From: Naegleria gruberi
Lineage: Eukaryota
DNA length: 64,000 nt
Reading direction: 5' to 3' (one strand)
NCBI GenBank assembly: GCA_000004985.1
Contig: GG738921.1
The stretch's first letter is position 1. The number at the start of each line of letters is the position of its first letter. Positions 1-42,978 of this stretch are shown one piece after another. A program made the translations under genes and the position numbers. A model generated the notes under the pieces. It made no database searches and was not told the DNA's origin. It saw only the letters and a list, made by a program, of their open reading frames with translations.

Positions 1-439
1 TTTAAATGATAAGAGTGAGATAGAGATTAACAAGAATATTTCATCAAATTCATTTGGTTATTGTCATCAAAGTGATCGAAATGGTTCAATGAGACACAAC
101 ACCATAGTTATTATTGTTTAATGGTTAGATACTTGATGGTGGTTAGATCTTTTTCAAAGTTTAAAAAATTGTCCATCCTTCTTTCCATTCATCATATCAT
201 TCATCACACAATATATTCATTCAATATTGAGTGAGGAATAATAATATTATTTAATAAAACGAGTGAGGACATATATATAAACTACTTGTGTAAATAACAA
301 TCAACAACAACAACAATAACAACAACAATAATTAAACAACGGAATTTCATAATAGTTTATTATTAAATAATAATAGTATTATAGTTACTCATCAACAACA
401 ATAAATCTTCATCATTTCCATTCATTCATCATATATAAT

Positions 440-3400
440 ATGAATTTTAATATTAATTTTAATATTAATGATTTACAAATATTATTAAATGCATCAAAAA
501 GTGAAGATGAAGAACAATATAAAATAGCCTATGATCAATATATTCAATTTGCATCTTTATTTATACAATTAAGAAATCAATGTATGTTTTTTTTAATATA
601 TATTATAATAATAACATTAATATAATATTAATAATAATTTAATAATATATAGTACAAAATAATAATGAATTAAATCAACAACAAAAACAAGATTTACATT
701 TTCAAATAACACAAATATTAAATTTTTCAATTAGTAGAGCTGAATTTTTAGAAAAACGTTTAAAATCTTCATTAAATAATTTAAATAATAATAATGGAAC
801 AATAACATTATCTAAACCAATTGCACTTCATTATTTATTTCATTTTTGTGATTGTACAGCTGAATTATTAATAATATTAAATAGAATTAATGATGCAACT
901 AAATATTATGCACAAGCTGCTGAATATGGATTAGAATTAATTAGTAAATGTATGTTATTTAATATATTTAATTTAATATATTTAATTTAATATTTAATAT
1001 AAATAGATAAAGTACCATTTCAATCAGAAGTAAAGAATGTACTTTCAAAAGCAGAATCATTAAAATCATCACCATCAACAACAACACCTACTACTACTGT
1101 AAATTCATTACAACAACAATTTAATAATTTACATTTATTTACCAATCCAATTTCATCATTAAATAATAATAATACTCCAACTCCTACTACTACTAACCGA
1201 TCATCACCATTATTAAATAATAATCAACAACAACAACAAAGATTATCACCTATTATATTACATCATCATCTAATAATAATAATAATAATAATTTAAATAG
1301 ACCATTATCAATATCTCCAACAAGTAATCTTCCATCTTCATATTCACCAACATCACCTAATAAATATAATCATCACCATCACCATCATCATCGTAATTCA
1401 TCATCAAATAATTCATCATCAAATAATTCTAATTCTAATAATAATAGTATTGATATTGATAATTTTAATTTTAGTTCATTAATAATACCATCTACACCAT
1501 TAACACCTATTACACCATCAAGTGCATCATCTGTATCATCTGTTTTATCTTCTAATAATAATAATTCATCAATTAATCATTCATTAAATACATCATCTCC
1601 ATTTGAAAGATCATTAATAAGTACAACTGTTAATGGTGCTGTTATTAATCAACAACAACAACTATCTAATAATAATTCATCATCTATATCATCATCATCT
1701 ATATTAAATAATAACAATCAAACAAATAAGATTAAACCAATAACAGATGAAGAAATTCAAGTATTAAAATATTCAAGTGTAATGCAATCAGGATTATTAT
1801 TATATCCATGGAATGATGAATTAGATTTAAATGAAAATTTTACATTTTCACAACCATTTATAGATCAACAATTTAATAATGTTTTATCAAAAGAACAATT
1901 ATCTAAATTATATAAATGGTTAAGACCACATGAAATTATTGAAATGAAATTAAATCAATTAAATAATAATAATAATTTAAATCAATCTAATGAAATTAAT
2001 CAATCTAATGAAATTAATCAATTAAATAATAATAATAATTTAAATCAATCTAATAATCAATTAAATAATTTAAATCAATTAAATAATAATTTAAATCAAT
2101 CTAATCAATTAAATAATTTAAATAAATTAAATATATATCCAACATTAATATATCAAGATGAAATTAATGAAGAGAATATAGTACAATCACATGTAGTAAC
2201 AGATTGTTCATTTGTAGCAAGTTTATGTGTAGCAGCATTATATGAAAGAAAATATAAAAAGAAATTAATTACAAATTCAATTTATCCACAAGATCCAATA
2301 ACAGGTAAACCATTTTATAATCCACATGGTAAATATTCTATTAAAATATATTTTAATGGTGTTGCTAGAAAAGTTATCATTGATGATAAATTACCTGTTG
2401 ATATAAATGGTAATTTATTATGTTCTTATTCTACTAAAATGGAAGAATTTTGGATTAGTTTAATGGAAAAAGCATATATGAAAGTAAATGGTGGTTATCA
2501 ATTTCCAGGTTCAAATTCAGGTATTGATTTATATGCTTTAACTGGTTGGATACCTGAAGAAGTTAAAATTATTTTAAATAATAATAATAATACTTCTATA
2601 AATGGTAATAATAATACTTCTTCTATAAATGGTAATAATAATAATAATAATACATGTAAATCACCCAATATGATGATGATGAATAATGGAACACAACAAT
2701 ATCCTATTAATAATCAACAACAAGTAAATACATTTGATAAAGAATTATTATGGAAAAGAATGCATGATGGATTTCAATTAGGTAAATGTTTAATTACCAT
2801 ATCAACTGGTCATTTAGATAAACAAACTGAAGAATTAGTTGGATTATATGCTAATCATGCTTATGCTATTTTAGATGTTAGAGAAATTAAATTAAATACT
2901 TCACCTATTACTATTAATAATACTAATACTAATACTACTATTAATAATAATAATAGTACTAGTAATACTTTAAATATGAATATTAATAATAATTTTAATA
3001 ATTTTAATAATAATTTAAATAATAATAATTTTAATAACAATTTAAATAATTTAAATAATAATAATATAAAAAGATTAATTAAAGTTAAAAATCCATGGAC
3101 TAAAAAAGGATGGAAAGGACCCTATTCACCCTATGATAAACAAATATGGACAGATAAATTAAAAAAAGAATTAGAATATGATGCAAGTATTTCTCATCAA
3201 GAAGATAATGGTATATTTTGGATGAATTATGAAAGTTTATTAAAATATTTTCAAACTGTTCATTTTTCATGGAATCCAGATTTATTTCCATATAGAGAAA
3301 TAAGACATTCATTATGGGATAATAGAATGATAAGTTTAGATGGTACAGATCATTATACAATGAATGGTAATCCACAATTTAGATTAAAATTACATGGTAA

Positions 3401-4064
3401 AGGAAGTGTATGGATAATGTTAACTAAACATTATACTTCATTAGAAGAAAGAGATCGTGATTATTTAACATTTCATATACATAGAGGTAGTTCTTCTTCT
3501 ATTGGTGATACTACTGTTTTTAAACAAGGTATGGATAGAGTTTTTTATAATGAAAATACTCTCATTCATAAAGGAAGATATTCAAATGATCCACATTATA
3601 GAATTTGTTTAAATTCAGATGATTCTAAAAATAGAAAGAAATCTATTAATTTAAATTCAAATTTAAATTTAAATTCATCATCAAATAATTCATATAATTC
3701 ATCAAATAATTCATCAAATAATTCAAATGATGATTCAAATGATCAATTATCAATATTTAGAATAGTATTATCACAACATGGAATGATACAAAGTATTAGA
3801 TATTCATTATTTTGTTATTCAAGTGTACCATGTAGTTTAGAACCCATTCCACAAACATATAAATATTATAGAAATGTTAGAGATTCATGGACAAGTAATA
3901 CATGTGGTGGTAGTTGTAATCAAATTAATACTTTTAGATTAAATCCACAATATTTAATTTCATTACCAAATACAAATAATATTAATAATATTAATAATAT
4001 TAATCATCATCATTCTCATCATGTAATAATAGAAGTAATAGTCCACATACAACATTATTTGATA
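440..4064 (+). CDS. Calpain-7/PalB-like cysteine protease with N-terminal MIT-like region; multi-exon, 3' end lost in assembly gap
   Basis: Exon 1 is 440..581 (MNFNINF...LRNQ), followed by a GTATGT..ATAG intron at 582..652. Exon 2 is 653..949 and contains an MIT-like stretch (ATKYYAQAAEYGLELISK). A second intron lies at 950..1006. The large ORF body carries calpain catalytic-core motifs: DCSFVASL (Cys), ANHAYAIL (His) and NPWTKKGWKGPYS (Asn). The reading frame switches between about 1221 and 1294 with no GT available, so there is a frameshift inside an (AAT)n/(CAA)n tract. The ORF then runs into N's at 4065. Confidence 0.65.
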
Positions 4065-6358
4065 NNNNNNNNNNNNNNNNNNNNNNNNNNNNNNNNNNNN
4101 NNNNNNNNNNNNNNNNNNNNNNNNNNNNNNNNNNNNNNNNNNNNNNNNNNNNNNNNNNNNNNNNNNNNNNNNNNNNNNNNNNNNNNNNNNNNNNNNNNNN
4201 NNNNNNNNNNNNNNNNNNNNNNNNNNNNNNNNNNNNNNNNNNNNNNNNNNNNNNNNNNNNNNNNNNNNNNNNNNNNNNNNNNNNNNNNNNNNNNNNNNNN
4301 NNNNNNNNNNNNNNNNNNNNNNNNNNNNNNNNNNNNNNNNNNNNNNNNNNNNNNNNNNNNNNNNNNNNNNNNNNNNNNNNNNNNNNNNNNNNNNNNNNNN
4401 NNNNNNNNNNNNNNNNNNNNNNNNNNNNNNNNNNNNNNNNNNNNNNNNNNNNNNNNNNNNNNNNNNNNNNNNNNNNNNNNNNNNNNNNNNNNNNNNNNNN
4501 NNNNNNNNNNNNNNNNNNNNNNNNNNNNNNNNNNNNNNNNNNNNNNNNNNNNNNNNNNNNNNNNNNNNNNNNNNNNNNNNNNNNNNNNNNNNNNNNNNNN
4601 NNNNNNNNNNNNNNNNNNNNNNNNNNNNNNNNNNNNNNNNNNNNNNNNNNNNNNNNNNNNNNNNNNNNNNNNNNNNNNNNNNNNNNNNNNNNNNNNNNNN
4701 NNNNNNNNNNNNNNNNNNNNNNNNNNNNNNNNNNNNNNNNNNNNNNNNNNNNNNNNNNNNNNNNNNNNNNNNNNNNNNNNNNNNNNNNNNNNNNNNNNNN
4801 NNNNNNNNNNNNNNNNNNNNNNNNNNNNNNNNNNNNNNNNNNNNNNNNNNNNNNNNNNNNNNNNNNNNNNNNNNNNNNNNNNNNNNNNNNNNNNNNNNNN
4901 NNNNNNNNNNNNNNNNNNNNNNNNNNNNNNNNNNNNNNNNNNNNNNNNNNNNNNNNNNNNNNNNNNNNNNNNNNNNNNNNNNNNNNNNNNNNNNNNNNNN
5001 NNNNNNNNNNNNNNNNNNNNNNNNNNNNNNNNNNNNNNNNNNNNNNNNNNNNNNNNNNNNNNNNNNNNNNNNNNNNNNNNNNNNNNNNNNNNNNNNNNNN
5101 NNNNNNNNNNNNNNNNNNNNNNNNNNNNNNNNNNNNNNNNNNNNNNNNNNNNNNNNNNNNNNNNNNNNNNNNNNNNNNNNNNNNNNNNNNNNNNNNNNNN
5201 NNNNNNNNNNNNNNNNNNNNNNNNNNNNNNNNNNNNNNNNNNNNNNNNNNNNNNNNNNNNNNNNNNNNNNNNNNNNNNNNNNNNNNNNNNNNNNNNNNNN
5301 NNNNNNNNNNNNNNNNNNNNNNNNNNNNNNNNNNNNNNNNNNNNNNNNNNNNNNNNNNNNNNNNNNNNNNNNNNNNNNNNNNNNNNNNNNNNNNNNNNNN
5401 NNNNNNNNNNNNNNNNNNNNNNNNNNNNNNNNNNNNNNNNNNNNNNNNNNNNNNNNNNNNNNNNNNNNNNNNNNNNNNNNNNNNNNNNNNNNNNNNNNNN
5501 NNNNNNNNNNNNNNNNNNNNNNNNNNNNNNNNNNNNNNNNNNNNNNNNNNNNNNNNNNNNNNNNNNNNNNNNNNNNNNNNNNNNNNNNNNNNNNNNNNNN
5601 NNNNNNNNNNNNNNNNNNNNNNNNNNNNNNNNNNNNNNNNNNNNNNNNNNNNNNNNNNNNNNNNNNNNNNNNNNNNNNNNNNNNNNNNNNNNNNNNNNNN
5701 NNNNNNNNNNNNNNNNNNNNNNNNNNNNNNNNNNNNNNNNNNNNNNNNNNNNNNNNNNNNNNNNNNNNNNNNNNNNNNNNNNNNNNNNNNNNNNNNNNNN
5801 NNNNNNNNNNNNNNNNNNNNNNNNNNNNNNNNNNNNNNNNNNNNNNNNNNNNNNNNNNNNNNNNNNNNNNNNNNNNNNNNNNNNNNNNNNNNNNNNNNNN
5901 NNNNNNNNNNNNNNNNNNNNNNNNNNNNNNNNNNNNNNNNNNNNNNNNNNNNNNNNNNNNNNNNNNNNNNNNNNNNNNNNNNNNNNNNNNNNNNNNNNNN
6001 NNNNNNNNNNNNNNNNNNNNNNNNNNNNNNNNNNNNNNNNNNNNNNNNNNNNNNNNNNNNNNNNNNNNNNNNNNNNNNNNNNNNNNNNNNNNNNNNNNNN
6101 NNNNNNNNNNNNNNNNNNNNNNNNNNNNNNNNNNNNNNNNNNNNNNNNNNNNNNNNNNNNNNNNNNNNNNNNNNNNNNNNNNNNNNNNNNNNNNNNNNNN
6201 NNNNNNNNNNNNNNNNNNNNNNNNNNNNNNNNNNNNNNNNNNNNNNNNNNNNNNNNNNNNNNNNNNNNNNNNNNNNNNNNNNNNNNNNNNNNNNNNNNNN
6301 NNNNNNNNNNNNNNNNNNNNNNNNNNNNNNNNNNNNNNNNNNNNNNNNNNNNNNNNNN
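4065..6358. other. Assembly gap (N run, ~2.3 kb)
   Basis: Uninterrupted n characters. Confidence 0.99.
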
Positions 6359-6360
6359 TA

Positions 6361-8015
6361 TTATTCTTCCTTATTCTTTCGTATTTGTTGAAATTGTTTA
6401 CCTGATGTTATTGAATTATTATTTGTATTAATAGTAGCTGTTACATTTGAAAGACTTGAATTAAGTGTGGAGGATGATGATGACATATTAAGACCTGTAG
6501 ATGATGTTACTGCCATCTTACCACTGGTGGGTGGTGTTGGTAGTGGTGGTTTTAAGAGATTTAGAATGATGATGATGATGGCTAAATGTACTACCACTCA
6601 TTATACTTGTATTATTAAGATTTGGAATACTTATATTAATAGTATTGGTATTATTTGTATTTGAATTGGTCATTATAGTTGAATTTAATCTTGTAAATGA
6701 CATATCTTCCTCACCATTATCATCATTTATATTATTGTGATTGAATGTACTAGTAGTGATCATATTACTTGCCAATTTAGATTCATTATTATTTACATAT
6801 ATAGATTCTCTTATAGGTTTAATTGGTGAAGTATTATCCTTATTTAAAAATGCTATTGAATTATTAAGATTTAAATTACTACTATTACTATTATTTGAAA
6901 ATAGTGATTTTGTAACTAGAAGTGAAGTTTTTGAATCATTCTTTTGTGTTGGTTGTTTTTCATTCAATCTCTTAAATCTATCTGCCAATGTTAAAGGATT
7001 TGATAAAATACTATTGGTAATATCACTTTTAATTATACTTGGTCTGGAATTGAGAGTATTACTCAAACCAATAGTAGTGGTATTAGTATTTGTTTTTGAT
7101 AGTGATGATGATGAGATATTGTTATTAATTGTATTCATTGGATTATTAATGGCTGATGAAAATGAATTATCATTAGATTGTTGAACTGATTTTCCATGAT
7201 TCATTTTCATTCTCTTTCTTGAAGCAATTAAATCATCATTCTCTTCCTCTTCATCATCACTCGAATCAAATATTGACTTGTTATTATTATTATTACTGGT
7301 AATTGTAGCACTACTATTATTTAAACTATTTGATGAATTACTAAATAAATTACTAGCTATGGCACTTCTTTCTTGTTCTGAAAGTGGTTTCCATGATGTA
7401 ATAGGCTTAATACCATTAGATTTTTGATAGAGTGAAGATCTTGAGAGGTAATCAAATTGTTGAGGTTGAGGTTGGATTATGAGATGAAGTAAGGTCATGA
7501 ATTTGATGATCATCTTGATCCATTGAAGAAGATGGTACATCCAAATTCTTTCTAACAGAGGAAGGTGAAAGTTCTCTCTTAAATCCACCCAATGATATTT
7601 TGTAATTATTTAATAGTGATAAGGTTGATGATGAAATATTGTGATGAGAATTTTCCTTCATTGTTGCTGGTAATGTTGATGACCAAGATGATGAATTTCT
7701 TATTGTGGTAGTGGTGGTGGTAGGTACAGAGGAAGAAGGAATGGAAGACATTGCAATAGGTTCCTTGATTCCATTTCCTCTAATGAATGATGTTGTAGAA
7801 GTTGATGGTCGACTCGAATAAAGGCTTGTTATTGATGATGATGAATTAGTGATGGTGCTCGGTATATTAGTTTTTTGTACATTGATTGAAGAGAGAGTTG
7901 AGGAATTTAATATTGTGTTATTGTTATTATTAATAGTATTGGTATTAGTAGTATTCTTCTTTGCAAACAAGTGTTGATACTTTTCGCTTAACGACATGCC
8001 CTCATGTTGAGACAT
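6361..8015 (-). CDS. Ser/Thr/Asn-rich low-complexity hypothetical protein; coding signal spread over three frames (apparent frameshifts or 3' intron into gap)
   Basis: There is an ATG at 8015 with an AT-rich leader. Minus-strand ORFs 7452..8015, 6518..7588 and 6361..6597 all have S/T/N-rich protein-like composition but sit in different frames. The 7455-7470 junction offers no GT..AG. The only GTAAG on this strand lies at about 6525, next to the stop at 6518 (CAGTG|GTAAGA). Confidence 0.4.
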
Positions 8016-11709: not shown

Positions 11710-11831
11710 NNNNNNNNNNNNNNNNNNNNNNNNNNNNNNNNNNNNNNNNNNNNNNNNNNNNNNNNNNNNNNNNNNNNNNNNNNNNNNNNNNNNNNNNNNN
11801 NNNNNNNNNNNNNNNNNNNNNNNNNNNNNNN
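11710..11831. other. Assembly gap
   Basis: N run. Confidence 0.99.
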
Positions 11832-31223: not shown

Positions 31224-31273
31224 NNNNNNNNNNNNNNNNNNNNNNNNNNNNNNNNNNNNNNNNNNNNNNNNNN
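31224..31273. other. Assembly gap (further 50-nt gaps at 32706..32755 and 42926..42975)
   Basis: N runs. Confidence 0.99.
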
Positions 31274-32697: not shown

Positions 32698-32755
32698 ATC
32701 AAGTGNNNNNNNNNNNNNNNNNNNNNNNNNNNNNNNNNNNNNNNNNNNNNNNNNN

Positions 32756-34263: not shown

Positions 34264-37200
34264 TTAGATTTCTTGACAATAATTACCAGGGAAGAGTCCC
34301 CTCTTTCCTTGTTTTTCACCTTCCCACCAACCAGATGGATCTTTATCTAACAAGGTAATAATTTCTCCTTCACGAAGAGTCAACTCGTCGTCAGCTGAAG
34401 CTTGATAATTGTACAATACCTTAACCTTTGGCTTTTCATCCTTCTTTGGTGGAGGTGGTAACTTCTTCTTATATGCACCACCGCCTTGTTCTTGTTGTTG
34501 AGCTAGGTAGGTTGATTCTTGAATTGGTGCAGTTTCCAATAATGACATTCTGTGACCAATTTGTTTTGGTTGATTGTTGGCTTGATAGGCTTGCATCTTA
34601 ACTTCGACCTTCTTTGGTTGGGAACTTGCTGGTAAACCATCAGCAATACCAATCTTGTAGCCAGAACCAGAACCAGAAACGTTGGCTAACTTGCTCTTTG
34701 GATCCAATACAAATTCTGCCTTCTTAACAGTCTTCTTCTTCTTATTCTCAGTGAAGGACAACATATTTTCAAAGGTACGAGGAATATCACGATTCATCTT
34801 GGCTCTGTATTGATCGTTCAAAATGGCCAAAAATTCAGTCTTGTTTTCACATTCCAAGAATAAGTCATCAATGTTTGGATCATTGATTTGAATGGCAAGC
34901 CAATTGTCAGACAATTGAGACATGGAAACACATTGAATTTGATTCATGGAAATTCTACACAACATGTCCATAATGAATTGCTTCTTGACCTTTTCACGAT
35001 GGATAAAGTACAAGGCCTCATTGGTCAATAGACCCCAAATCTTGTCGAAAGTGACACCCTTCAAGAGTTTCTTCTTTGGTCTCATGAAAATATCACCAAA
35101 GACAACACCACCATCATCTTTACGACCTTGCTTTTTCATCACTTCTTGCAATTGAGCATTATCCATATAATTGGCATGGTCACCCAAAAAGTTTCTATTG
35201 AGTGACAATCTACGACGTTGCTTTCTTCCTTCCAACAAGTCAGCACTGGTATTTCTCAACTTGATAAAGTAACGTTTCAACTTGTAGTTACGCCACAATC
35301 TTTGCATTTGAGTAGCATTGTCGTGGAATAAACGTTCCTTACTTTCTTCCAAACCAAAGAGAGTATCTGGCTTTCTCAAAAAGATTTTAGTTTTACCCAT
35401 TTGATATTCACCTTGATCAATGCCCATATCCTTCAAAATGGTTTCACAACCAGTACGTGGATCACCCTTCCATTGTGGCCATGTCTTTTTAGAGAGGACA
35501 GAGAAGGAGTTCAAGAACTTTTGGAATGGAGCACGGAATGCAAAACCAGCTCTTCTCACACGAATATTTTCCAACAAACCCAAATATTTGACTTGATGGA
35601 GTACACGTTTGGTATCAAAGTCACGAGGTTGCTTGGTTTCGTTTGGTTTAATACAACGAATATAGTGAGGTTCACACTTTTTCAATGTTGCAACCAATTC
35701 CACAGCAGAATTCTTAATCTTAAAACCAGCACTTTCAGGTCTCTTCTTATCATTTTCATTGACATTTTCAGGGAAGAACTTTCTAATGAAAGAATTGGTT
35801 GTAGATTGCATACATTGAATCAAGGTCTTGTAGAGAACGTCCTTATTCTTATCAGTGAAACCATCAATGTTATAATCGACAGTACCAGCATAGTGCTTAA
35901 CTGAAAATTCATTGGTACGACCAACAAAGTGAGGATTATTGACAACTTCACGCAAACGTGTCAAGAATTTTTCATCAGCAGCTCTAGCTTCCATAGAGTG
36001 AGTAGTGTTACAAGTGTCATCGAGAATGGAAAAGATACCAGGTGGATTCTTTTCTTCAATCAAATCACAGACAATCTTATTGTTAAAGTATTGAATTGGT
36101 TCCCATTTGATACCTTCTTGAGTATATTCTTCCTGTTCTGCTTTAAGTGTCAAGTCAATAAAGATTTGTTGCAATTTTTCATTGACATAATTGATACAGA
36201 ATTGTTCAAAACCATTCTTGTCAAAGATTTCAAAACCATAAATGTCCAAAACAGCTAAAATCAAAGTATTCTTCTTTGTATCCATGGCATCATTGATACG
36301 TTTAACCAACCAATCGAACAATCTAGCATATAATACCTTAGCCAAGGCATCACGAATGTTGGCAGCTTGAGCAGGTGATTGAGAAACTGTAATTTCTTCA
36401 TTACCTGATTTGATAATTCTATTCAACAAGGCAAATTGCAACTTATCAGAAGCAACATTGAGTAAATAGGCAGCATAATCCAAAGTACCTGAATCTTCAA
36501 CAACAGATCCTTTACCAGCTTCTCTAAATGTAATGTTACCAAGCCACAAGATACCTGCAACCATTCTCATGATATTTGATTGTTCTTCCTTTGTAATACC
36601 AATAACGTCCATGGCCTTTCTAGTCAATTGATATTCTTCAGCATCATCAATACCATCAACATTGTAACAACCAGATTGTGATAAGTAGTAGAAATCGTGA
36701 GCATTGGTTGTGGCAAATTCTTCCTTTTCTTCCTTAGAAGCACCTGCACACAATTGATAGAAAATGTGGAAGTTACGTTCACCAGCTTGTTGATAGACAA
36801 CTCTGGATTTTTCCAAGAGATAGTTGGTAATTTTACCACCTATTGGATCACCTCTATCATCAAACTGTTTAATAGTTGAGTAGTAGTAGTAGTTGTGGTA
36901 GTAGTAGTTACAGTTTACAATGAAATTTTTGTAACAAGTACATATTGAAATAAATTACAAAAAAATGTTAAACATTATATTAACAAATCAGCAAGTAGTA
37001 CAACATACCTGAATTTCAAAGAATTTACCGAAACGAGATGAATTGTTGTTACGAACAGTTTTGGCATTACCAAAAGCTTCTAACAATGGATTGGACTCGA
37101 GGATAATTCTCTTCACACGATCAACACCAACACCATCACCAGAAACAGCAGCAATATATTGCATAATTAACTTGGAAGCTTCAGTCTATTATAACAATTT

Positions 37201-37709
37201 ATCACATAATAAAAAGTATTAGTATTGGTAGTATTAGTAGTGGTATTAGAAAAGGAAAATGGCAAATATATAGAGTGTCATGAAAAAAACAATGTAGAAT
37301 GCAACAACAACAATAATAAAACATTTCAAGTAACATAAGATAAGCATAAACATAAAAATAACTCATAACATACCTTACCAGCACCAGATTCACCTGAAAT
37401 GATAACACACTGTGAATCACCATTATTCTTCATGTTTTTGTAAGCAGTTTCAGCAAGAGCATAAACGTGTGGAGGTTCTTCATATGGATACTTTCCATTG
37501 TATTGATCAATGAAATTTTGATCAAAAATAGGAATTTGTTTGAAAGGATTGACAGAAATCAAGACATTTCCAATGTAGGTATAAATCACATCCGAACCAT
37601 GTCTCTTTTTAAGATTTTCCATAACTTCATTCTCTGATAATTTTGGTAAGAGGACCATGTCATCAATACCAGCTTGTTTTTGTTTGGCTTTCTTTGCGTT
37701 AAATGCCAT
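34264..37709 (-). CDS. Long-tailed class I myosin (motor + TH1 + Pro-rich + C-terminal SH3), 3 exons
   Basis: Exon 1 is 37709..37374 (MAFNAKKAK...GESGAGK, P-loop). A 188-nt intron follows. Exon 2 is 37185..37009 ([18 protein letters not shown]...[14 protein letters not shown], switch I). A 144-nt intron follows. Exon 3 is 36864..34264 ([38 protein letters not shown] ... SH3 [36 protein letters not shown]). All junctions are GTATGT..AG and in frame (1037 aa). Confidence 0.9.
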
Positions 37710-38426: not shown

Positions 38427-39529
38427 CTATTGAAAAATAATACTTTCAGAAAGGAAGGGCATTTCTTCAACACTCTTCTTCAGTGAAAACTCTTCATCCT
38501 TTCCTCCATATGTGAATACTCCAATAAAATTATTGTTATAACCAATCACTCGAATTGTTTCCCACATTTTAACAAGTTGATGTTCAATAAAAAGGTCAAA
38601 TTCAAACATTTGTTCAATTTGCTTATTTCTGCAATGAGGAGATGGAAGGATATTTTCTCTAATTGCCATCAATTCAACATTTGTATATTTCTTCTTTAGA
38701 GATGTAATAGTTTCACCTTTAATCTTCTTTGACAATAATCCAAAATCAATTTTTTCTTTAAATTCTTTCAAAACAGTTTCAAAAGACACCCCATTCGATG
38801 AATTGACGAATGAGGCCATATAACTATGCGATGAATCATTTGAACTTGTCATTGAAAATTCCTTAGGAAGACAATATTCACACTTTTTAAAAGGTTTAAA
38901 GATTTTAAAGTCTTCCTCATGAATTCCTTGAGTTTCATCTTTACCAATAATGATTTTTACAAACAAGATACCAGCAGCCTTTTTTCCATCTCTTAGAGGT
39001 AACATTTCTTCGTATTCCTTACCATACTCCAATTCTTCCGATTTAAGAGTCCAAGATGTACTTCCCAGAAAATCCTTAATACAACAATTGATATAGTAAA
39101 TAAGTAATAATAATAATATTATTAAATTTGATTCAATTAATACAAACAAATTATGAACTTACATCTTTTGAGAATCGATCGTAATCATAAACTTCAAAAA
39201 TCACTTCAATTCCCTTGTGCTGCCTATCTAAACAATCAAGGGAATGGAACGTCTTACTTTCATTCCATGAGGGATTTAGATTTTCCATCACTACGGAAGT
39301 TCTTTGCTCCCAAACCTTGTCTGAATTATTTGGAGGCAATCTTTCCTCTCCGACTGATCGTAATTTAATCACCACATACTATTTTAAATCAATTCATGTA
39401 TTAATTATTAATTGAAAATTAAAAGCAATAATACATTACAGGGTCCGAAAGATTATTCAGATCTGATGCTTTGAGTCCAGTGGCTTTATATGGAGAAATG
39501 ATGAGAGTATCAATTGATGAGAAGGGCAT
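38427..39529 (-). CDS. C2-domain protein A (N-terminal C2 + conserved C-terminal domain with PSPHCRNK motif), 3 exons
   Basis: The exons are 39529..39440, 39378..39163 and 39074..38427, separated by introns of 61 and 88 nt. The C2 signatures are SDP|YVVIKL, NLNPSWNE and FEVYDYDRFSKD|DFLG. Confidence 0.7.
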
Positions 39530-39659
39530 GATTGTTCTATTTTTTATAATGTTTGTATCAATTAGCGCCAATAAGTTAGAATTCTATTAAAGGAAAAACA
39601 AACAATACAAAAAGAAATCATGATGATTTCGATTGATTTTATTGTTATAGTGTGTAAAT

Positions 39660-40809
39660 CTAGAGAAAGAGGGTATTTTCTGAAACTCTGGCAACTTCAG
39701 CTTCACCCATTCTCAAAATACTATGAAGTGCATCTTGTGGTTCAATATAAATGTATAGTCCTAGTTTTCCATTTGAATGAGAAACAATACGGAAAGTTCC
39801 CCACATCCTTATTCCTCCCTTCTTTTCAAGTAAGAGAATGTACTCCATAATATTGGTAATTAATTTGTTTCTACAATGAGGATCTGGGTTAACATGTTCA
39901 TTCTTACTCTTAACTTCCACCTTGGAGTATTCCTTTTTCATGTCACTAATCTTTTGGTCACTCACTTGCTTGGCAATATCTGCAAACTTGGCATTGCTAT
40001 CGAATGGAATAAACTTGGTCAATAATACTTCAGCTCTCTTCATATCTGCAAAAACTGCATTATGCGCATCGGTTTCTTCACTTGAAGAGATGAGAGAAAA
40101 TTGTCTTGGGGTACAAATTTCAGCAAAACCAGATTGGAATGGGGAAATAAAGTTAAATTCCTTATCAACTCTATCTTGTTCATAACTCCAAATCTTGTAA
40201 CTGATATACAGTGTTCCCGATTTACAATCAGTTAATTCAAGGACCTCTGAATATTCCCTATCATGCTCAAGTTTATCACCATCAAGTAGAATTTCAGCTT
40301 GTCCAATAGGATCCTTTCAAAATGATGGATTGATGAATACATTTGAATTTAACACTTACATCCTTAGACAATAAATCCCAATCATAAACTTCAAACTTTA
40401 ACTTGATTCCCAAGCCAGTGTCAAGATACAATAAACTGTGGAATGTTTTATCCTCATTCCATTCGGGATTTAAGGTCTTTTTTTTGACGCTTGTTTTTTG
40501 TCTCCATTCCTTAGCTGTTTCCTTCATTATATCGTCAAATCTTTCATCATCAATGGCTGATTTTGCTTGTACAATCACATACTATTACAAGTCAATAAAC
40601 CAATACTAATTAACAATCACTTACAGGATCCTTTGGAAAGAGTCAATACATCAATCGAATAATAAATTCACTTACAGAAAATCCATTAAGATCAGCCTAT
40701 TACGATAATTAAGATGAATTGATAGCACCAATAAGAGTCAACCTACAGCCTCAAGATTTTTTGCGTGCTTGATTGTCACGGTTAATGTATCCATAGCTCT
40801 GAAAGGCAT
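39660..40809 (-). CDS. C2-domain protein B, tandem paralogue of A; 5 exons including a candidate 6-nt micro-exon (40625..40630) and a 1-nt frame problem in a T5 run
   Basis: The exons are 40809..40747 (MPFRAMDTLTVTIKHAKNLEA), 40697..40676 (ADLNGFF/S), 40630..40625 (GATCCT = DP), 40581..40360 (YVIVQAKS...NPEWNE...FEVYDWDLLSKD) and 40313..39660 (DPIGQAEILL...PDPHCRNK...). The introns are 49, 45, 43 and 46 nt. Confidence 0.6.
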
Positions 40810-41121
40810 CTTTAAATTATGTTTGATAAAAATCTAGTAGCAATTGTTGAATCAGTGAAAATGAACACTTGATTGTTTGTTATTTTTTCTGTATTGCTTT
40901 TTGCTTGCTTAATATTGTTATTTACTTTTCAAATCCCATAGTACCTTATTAAAAGTTGTTAGGGACATGAAATTACCATTTCGGGAACGGTTTTTATATA
41001 ATGCCGAAAACCTAAACACCTTAATAGAGTATAACAATAATTTAAAGGTGGGTACTAGCAAAATATCAACAGATTTTTAATCAAGAGTGACTTCACTAGT
41101 TTATTACAACAAATGTTCAAT

Positions 41122-41866
41122 TTAAGCTGTAGTAGTGGTGTTTGAAGCAACTACTGGAGTAACAACAGTTTCAGTCTTCTTGGCCTTCTTAGATCCCTTC
41201 TTGACCTTCTTAACCTTCTTAGCACCCTTCTTAGCAGTCTTTTTTACCTTCTTAGCACCCTTCTTTGTACCCTTCTTGACCTTCTTGGCACCTTTCTTAG
41301 TGGACTTCTTAACCTTCTTAGCCTTCTTAGATCCCTTCTTGGCACCCTTCTTGACCTTCTTAACCTTCTTAGCAGTCTTCTTTGCCTTCTTAGTACCCTT
41401 CTTGGCAGATCTAACAGTCTTCTTTGCCTTCTTAGCACCCTTCTTGGTGGACTTCTTTGGTGTTTTCTTGACAGATCTTACAGTAGTCTTGGTGGACTTC
41501 TTGGCAACCTTCTTAACACCAGTTTTCTTTGGAGTCTTCTTTACAGATCTAACAGCAGTCTTCTTTGGGGAAGCCTTCTTGGTTGCCCTCTTTGTTGTTC
41601 TCTTGACAGATCTAACGGCCTTTGGCTTCTTTGGAGCAGCAACTCTAGTGGAGTTTCTTTGACTAAGAGTCTTGATAACGGTAGGTGGCTTCTTAGCTCT
41701 TGTGGTTTTAGTGGCTCTAACACCTCTAATTTTAGCCTTAGCCTCAGTCTTCCAATTGATAAGAATAAAAGCAACAATTAAAATTAGTACGTACAGCCAT
41801 AGTCATGCCGGCAACACAGGCCAACAAGGCAATCAAACACAATGTAAGGAAAAGCTTAGCACTCAT
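41122..41866 (-). CDS. Secreted poly-lysine/alanine repeat protein (signal peptide + ~200 aa of AKKGAKKVKK-type repeats), 2 exons
   Basis: Exon 1 is 41866..41795 (MSAKLFLTLCLIALLACVAGMTMA). A 46-nt GTACGT..GGAAG intron lies at 41749..41794. Exon 2 is 41748..41122 and is open to TAA. Lys is encoded almost exclusively by AAG, with GCT/GTT/ACT/GGT/AGA bias (a highly-expressed-gene codon pattern). The listed + strand ORF 41135..41662 is its antisense (FLAFLDPFL repeats). Confidence 0.55.
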
Positions 41867-42925: not shown

Positions 42926-42978
42926 NNNNNNNNNNNNNNNNNNNNNNNNNNNNNNNNNNNNNNNNNNNNNNNNNNAAA

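Follow-up and report, generated by a model that had tools for sequence, protein, structure and literature searches.

A probable 6-nt exon in one of two intact tandem C2-domain genes of Naegleria gruberi

Results

Two tandem genes on the minus strand

This report concerns a pair of neighboring genes in a 64,000-nucleotide (nt) stretch of the Naegleria gruberi scaffold GG738921.1, hereafter called the window, and in particular a candidate exon of 6 nt in one of the two. Positions 38427-40809 hold two minus-strand genes arranged head to tail, the outer ends being the TAG stop codon of gene A (NAEGRDRAFT_75100) and the ATG of gene B (NAEGRDRAFT_75101; EFC37175.1 / XP_002669919.1). Exon boundaries were placed by exact string search after translating the three minus-strand frames, and every intron in the resulting models of A and B is of the GT-AG type and lies in phase 0 (Table 1). 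The five-exon model of gene B has a coding sequence (CDS) of 966 nt, in frame, that encodes 321 amino acids (aa). The extended three-exon model of gene A has a CDS of 954 nt, also in frame, that encodes 317 aa, and predicts the spliced junctions GACCCT/TATGTGGTG and AAAGAT/GATTTTCTG. As the original prediction held, the genes are tandem paralogues sharing an architecture: a Pfam C2 domain is found in both, and the two proteins align from end to end (35% identity, E 1e-65), P-x-P-H-C-R-N-K motif included.

A candidate 6-nt exon in gene B

The hexanucleotide GATCCT is probably an exon of the gene B mRNA, encoding Asp-Pro. The N-terminal coding region of B is split by three introns, as had been predicted, and these were located as GT-AG introns of 50, 45 and 43 nt. 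Between the second and the third stands GATCCT, with AG directly 5' of it and GTAAGT directly 3' (context CCAAAG/GATCCT/GTAAGT), which are canonical splice sites. The pattern AG/GAYCCN/GTRAGT has a single occurrence on both strands of the window, at the micro-exon, and its chance expectation in a 94-nt intron of the same composition is about 8e-7. For the looser pattern AG-GAYCCN-GT the expectation is about 8e-5, or 11 in 200,000 shuffles.

Within the two flanking introns there are further signals. Both begin with a GTAAGT donor and have a TTGAC motif at 10-13 nt from the closing AG, the acceptor of intron 2 has the best pyrimidine tract among the introns of gene B (CTCTTTCCAAAG), and translation through either one runs into a stop codon. 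At 45 and 43 nt they are of normal size here (range 41-50 nt); a crude screen of the window for GTAAGT introns between long open frames gave other candidate introns of 41, 42, 43 and 47 nt.

The 6-nt segment is in phase 0 on both sides and restores an SDPYV motif. Residues S28, D29, P30, Y31 and V32 are invariant among B, A, the N. gruberi paralogue NAEGRDRAFT_82085 (hereafter 82085) and homologues of N. lovaniensis and N. fowleri, and they occur also in an environmental homologue (L053); the Asp-Pro pair is kept in six of six family members. The string NGFSDPYV in B is identical to the C2 motif of synaptotagmin-3. At the N. lovaniensis locus (L001) and in L053, the N-terminus including SDPY is encoded without an intron. 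The motif of gene A, described in the original prediction as contiguous, is also interrupted, a 61-nt intron following directly after SDP. This is the same place as that of intron 3 of gene B: with the micro-exon included, B intron 3 and A intron 1 share their position, in phase 0 after the proline of SDP, and in the public model the B intron sits two codons off it. The proposed Asp-Pro micro-exon accordingly stands as regards its splice sites, the motif that it restores and the intron position that it brings into line, all of this being support at the level of sequence.

Inclusion of the micro-exon predicts the junction CTTAATGGATTTTCT/GATCCT/TATGTGATTGTACAAGC and the spliced strings CTTAATGGATTTTCTGATCCTTATGTGATTGTACAAGC and TTTTCTGATCCTTATGTG; skipping predicts the junction CTTAATGGATTTTCT/TATGTGATTGTACAAGC and the spliced string CTTAATGGATTTTCTTATGTGATTGTACAAGC. 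RNA-seq data of N. gruberi exist under ENA PRJEB23822 (PMC6142364).

As a separate observation, the string AAAG/GATCCT is found on the minus strand after both intron 2 (40625-40636) and intron 4 (40309-40320) of gene B, exon 5 starting with DPIGQ. Comparison of the two intron interiors gives no significant similarity (z 1.8), and we treat the repeated string as coincidence.

Public models of both genes

The five-exon model of gene B minus the 6-nt exon equals EFC37175.1, residue for residue (319 aa; exact-sequence look-up), an entry that is titled only 'predicted protein'. The public model excises 40675-40582 as one 94-nt intron, which leaves Asp-Pro missing from the protein; introns 1 and 4 are present in it as in ours. 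In the public model of NAEGRDRAFT_75101 two invariant residues are probably missing, and one of them would be a Ca2+ ligand according to the alignments described below.

For gene A, a protein search found the last 192 aa to be 100% identical to N. gruberi EFC37174.1. This public model is 192 aa long and begins at a Met inside the last exon, without the two upstream exons and without the entire C2 domain. EFC37174.1 and EFC37175.1 lie on the same 207,235-bp contig.

Intact reading frames and constraint

Gene B had been thought to contain a run of five T's that breaks the frame and calls for a 1-nt correction. By exact search, the string at 40684..40671 is GGATTTTCTGTAAG, which has four T's, and there is no copy of GGATTTTTCTGTAAG, which has five; the earlier count was a miscount. 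Exon 2 reads GCT GAT CTT AAT GGA TTT TCT (ADLNGFS) in frame as given, and EFC37175.1 reads the same exon in frame.

A second strain could be compared by means of a metagenome contig (L002; ENA ERZ929261, run ERR1078381, k127_149467; 1719 bp) that has 98% nucleotide identity to positions 40543-38829 of the window. In the coding sequence of B, where exons 4-5 are covered, there are 7 synonymous differences and 2 replaced codons (M49L and E199H), and in that of A there are 3 synonymous differences, all in exon 2, and no non-synonymous ones. Summed over both genes, this amounts to 10 synonymous changes against 2 replaced codons, with the frames intact. The indels are all non-coding, being +9 nt in B intron 4, -3 nt in A intron 1 and -2 nt in the spacer between the genes, which holds 9 differences when indels are counted. 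Because the changes are mostly synonymous and the indels are confined to introns and intergenic DNA, A and B are not decaying; both genes are under purifying selection. The extended model of gene A is likewise supported, since its three synonymous differences fall in exon 2, an exon that the public model omits. L002 also shows that a close strain of the N. gruberi clade was present in that metagenome sample.

The C2 domain

Both proteins match the Pfam C2 domain (PF00168) well above the cut-off of 22 bits, A with 67.7 bits (E 1.2e-18) and B with 75.5 bits (E 4.3e-21). The best solved relatives, identified with phmmer against the PDB, are the C2 domains of synaptotagmin-3, -1 and -7, with synaptotagmin-3 (Syt3) and synaptotagmin-1 (Syt1) best at E 7e-22. 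By alignment, the loop aspartates of B are D23, D29, D97, D99 and D105, and gene A has the same five; D29 of B is there only with the micro-exon and is lost in the public model. These residues are the equivalents of D172, D178, D230, D232 and D238 of Syt1 C2A, the five acidic Ca2+ ligands of loops 1 and 3, among which D178, the counterpart of Asp29 in B, is a ligand of loop 1. From these alignments, a C2 domain with five ligands and Ca2+-dependent phospholipid binding is predicted.

The likeness to synaptotagmin, DOC2 and PKC C2 domains includes the SDPYV motif (NGFSDPYV in B) and a YDxD...SKDD loop, which together carry all five aspartates. A difference is that the C2 domain is the only one and stands at the very N-terminus; neither a transmembrane segment nor a further C2 domain nor a kinase was found. 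A further difference from C2 domains of the synaptotagmin type is an insert of about 20 residues (SAIDDERFDDIMKETAKEW) after the SDPYV strand, where the AlphaFold2 (AF2) model of 82085 has a helix.

The C-terminal domain

An AF2 model of residues 150-321 of B was obtained with a predicted local distance difference test score (pLDDT) of 89.5 and a predicted template modeling score (pTM) of 0.87. It is predicted to form an antiparallel beta-sheet sandwiched by helices, as in solved Mog1/PsbP members, and the full-length AF2 model of 82085 (pLDDT 79.8) gives the same two match sets, C2 and Mog1/PsbP. As modeled, the C-terminal domain is Mog1/PsbP-like at the level of the fold, not of family membership. 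The comparators were yeast and human Mog1/RANGRF, PsbP, PsbP-like proteins and the bacterial proteins DcrB, LpqN, Tsi3 and BT_1490; unlike these, the domain of A and B, 7-13% identical to them, has no match to Pfam Mog1 or PsbP (PF04603 and PF01789, respectively). The C-terminal domain has no Pfam match at E<=1 when full-length proteins are searched, nor at E<=10 for the domains of four family members.

A profile of the four C-terminal domains was searched against 1.84 billion representative proteins and returned four real matches, namely three proteins tied to N. gruberi or a near-identical strain and one metagenome fragment (P0013). A fifth match, P0014, was rejected as a tandem-repeat artefact. 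Within the searched proteins, this sequence family is found only in Naegleria-type sequences. A scan of JGI and ENA metagenomes with the family alignment listed 50 loci, all of them generic C2 matches of 28-42% identity that cover the C2 domain only.

Paralogy and intron positions

A and B are about 35-37% identical, and 82085 is 56% identical to B. In a neighbor-joining tree, A lies outside a clade of B, 82085, the N. lovaniensis protein and L053, within which B pairs with 82085. On this placement of A, the tandem pair is old. A tblastx comparison of L001 with the window matches only the A and B genes; since nothing beyond these genes matches, L001 probably corresponds to the 82085 orthologue's locus and not to that of A and B.

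Intron positions were compared among A, B, L001 and L053. All four have an intron at S-K/R-D/D, the only one in the latter two (Table 1). The additional intron after SDP occurs in A and B and is missing in L001 and L053, and introns 1 and 2 of gene B are so far specific to B. The post-SDP intron shared by A and B could reflect loss in the lineages of L001 and L053, parallel gain, or gene conversion between neighbors. The origin of new introns by copying of an existing one was rejected for want of signal: when all 12 intron interiors were aligned pairwise and compared with shuffles, the best z was 2.4, and the pairs B intron 2/intron 3 and B intron 2/intron 4 were unremarkable.

Neighboring features

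Directly upstream of gene B, at about 41110-41700 on the minus strand, lies a Lys/Ala-rich open reading frame (ORF) with KKAKKxKK-type repeats that resembles a histone H1 tail. Directly downstream of gene A, at about 34264-37709 on the minus strand, is a long ORF that by eye is myosin-I-like (motor, tail and C-terminal SH3), with at least one further upstream exon at 37326-37709. Runs of N, representing scaffold gaps, occur at 4065-6358, 11710-11831, 31224-31273, 32706-32755 and 42926-42975, none of them within the A/B locus; the first accounts for the near-zero GC of the composition window 4001-6000.

Table 1. Gene models at the A/B locus (window coordinates) and intron-bearing homologues in other sequences (coordinates of the sequence named)
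Feature	Coordinates	Strand	Details
Gene B (NAEGRDRAFT_75101)	39660..40809	-	five-exon model; ATG 40809, TAG 39662-39660
B exon 1	40747..40809	-	MPFRAMDTLTVTIKHAKNLEA; exact search and translation
B intron 1	40746-40697	-	50 nt, phase 0, GTAGGT...TAG
B exon 2	40676..40696	-	21 nt; ADLNGFS; TTTT at 40681-40678
B intron 2	40675-40631	-	45 nt, phase 0, GTAAGT...TTGAC...CCAAAG
B exon 3 (candidate micro-exon GATCCT)	40625..40630	-	6 nt; Asp29-Pro30 of SDPYV
B intron 3	40624-40582	-	43 nt, phase 0, GTAAGT...TTGAC...TAATAG
B exon 4	40360..40581	-	C2 core (YVIVQ...YDWDLLSKD); translation
B intron 4	40359-40314	-	46 nt, phase 0
B exon 5	39660..40313	-	C2 end and predicted C-terminal Mog1/PsbP-like domain (residues about 150-321)
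Spacer, B stop codon to A start codon	39530..39659	-	130 nt
Gene A (NAEGRDRAFT_75100)	38427..39529	-	extended three-exon model; ATG 39529
Gene A exons	39529-39440, 39378-39163, 39074-38427	-	introns of 61 and 88 nt, both phase 0
N. lovaniensis homologue (L001, PYSW02000054.1)	6001-7088		one intron, 128 nt, at S-R-D/D
Environmental homologue (L053, JGI 3300002220 MLSBCLC_10296507)	343-1442		one intron, 38 nt, at S-R-D/D

Discussion

We think it likely, with good though not overwhelming confidence, that A and B are intact and old tandem paralogues, that gene B needs no correction, and that it is expressed as a five-exon mRNA whose third exon is 6 nt long and whose product joins a C2 domain to a Mog1/PsbP-like domain. 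Several points weigh against this reading. Skipping of the micro-exon is also in frame and equals the public model, and the case for inclusion consists of homology and splice signals. The second strain offers no check on the exon itself, as L002 ends at 40543, 82 nt short of it. For the C-terminal domain, the Mog1/PsbP assignment is one of fold at a sequence identity of 7-13%, and the AF2 model was built on a shallow alignment of 4 sequences.

Removal of such closely spaced introns is mechanistically conceivable. Short introns of 41-50 nt would presumably be recognized by intron definition rather than exon definition, and introns 2 and 3 of gene B would each be recognizable alone, having their own donor, branch-like motif and acceptor. 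They would probably be removed one after the other and not simultaneously, because a spacing of only 6 nt between an acceptor and the donor that follows it would make joint occupancy difficult. Consecutive intron removal has been shown for plant micro-exons, with the upstream intron tending to go last (PMC8831610).

The first alternative is that the public model is right. In that case 40675-40582 is one intron, GATCCT/GTAAGT is the relic of a former exon end that was abandoned after a stronger donor had appeared 51 nt upstream, and B is a 319-aa protein without Asp-Pro whose C2 domain is short of one Ca2+ ligand. In its favor, skipping leaves an in-frame product identical to the deposited EFC37175.1, introns of 88-90 nt also occur in the window, and recognizing an acceptor and the next donor at once is sterically difficult when the exon between them has 6 nt (PMC8831610). 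We nevertheless regard a relic as unlikely. The deposited entry is named only 'predicted protein', and exons of 15 nt or less are routinely missed by gene finders (PMC8831610). Loss of Asp-Pro would drop residues that are invariant in the family and in synaptotagmin-type C2 domains, from a gene that is otherwise under purifying selection. Moreover, signals in a relic are expected to decay, whereas the internal acceptor has the best pyrimidine tract in the gene and a TTGAC motif, and the internal GTAAGT is perfect.

A second alternative, that both isoforms are made and the 6-nt cassette toggles between a Ca2+-competent and a Ca2+-impaired C2 domain, appears improbable to a similar degree. The products of inclusion and of skipping are both in frame, transcriptomes of N. 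gruberi show instances of exon skipping (PMC6142364), and micro-exons are often alternative in animals (PMC7821500). On the other hand, among the eukaryote species surveyed every one but a single exception had more intron retention than exon skipping (PMC6142364), and skipping of micro-exons is uncommon in plants (PMC8831610). A more specific form of this idea, in which the exon would be a regulated cassette that makes B a membrane adaptor either responsive to Ca2+ or blind to it, depending for instance on whether the cell is an amoeba or a flagellate, is offered as speculation that we would not expect to prove correct. If it were true, a Ca2+ sensor would be tuned by a micro-exon in an organism far removed from animals and plants, in a genus-specific family of C2 plus Mog1/PsbP-like proteins whose tandem members have kept an intron position that their relatives lack.

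The remaining explanation, a gene B frameshifted by a homopolymer error in the assembly or by recent pseudogenisation, is almost certainly wrong: it arose from the count of five T's and has no support in a window with four and an intact B CDS, so that the choice between assembly error and decay falls together with the frameshift, and both the reading of EFC37175.1 through the same exon and the constrained pattern of substitutions against the second strain oppose it.

With the five-exon reading of gene B, the proteins would act as follows. A rise in Ca2+ would dock the C2 domain on acidic phospholipid, and docking would bring the C-terminal domain, presumably a binding module, together with its protein or ligand, to the membrane. 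A PsbP-type function in a non-photosynthetic amoeba is implausible, and the sequence offers no basis for binding of Ran-GTPase or photosystem II.

The micro-exon would be of a kind already known. A catalogue of ultra-short coding micro-exons (<=15 nt) that are missed by annotation exists for plants (Yu et al. 2022, PMC8831610), and such exons are well documented from animals too (PMC7821500). Like those of plants and animals, the exon of gene B is internal, in frame and far too small for gene finders and aligners to detect. It sits within a conserved domain between strong splice signals, and its residues are deleted from the reference annotation. Unlike those cases, the host is a heterolobosean amoeba, the flanking introns are near minimum size (45 and 43 nt), and the exon is so far a sequence-level proposal. 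Our literature searches turned up neither a description of micro-exons in Naegleria nor a paper that names the A or B locus.

Conclusions

What lies at this locus is likely a misannotated micro-exon in a conserved domain, in two genes that are otherwise ordinary and uncharacterized. The micro-exon of the original prediction is probably correct and makes for a better gene model than the public one. Nothing here overturns current understanding, and the practical outcome consists of corrections to two public N. gruberi gene models. The Mog1/PsbP-like fold, as modeled, provides a first structural handle on a Naegleria-restricted domain that is joined to a predicted Ca2+ sensor. At the A/B locus one can test cleanly whether protists with short introns have ultra-short exons and whether these are systematically missed. 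If they are, other Naegleria domains may be damaged in annotation, including those of the pathogen N. fowleri.

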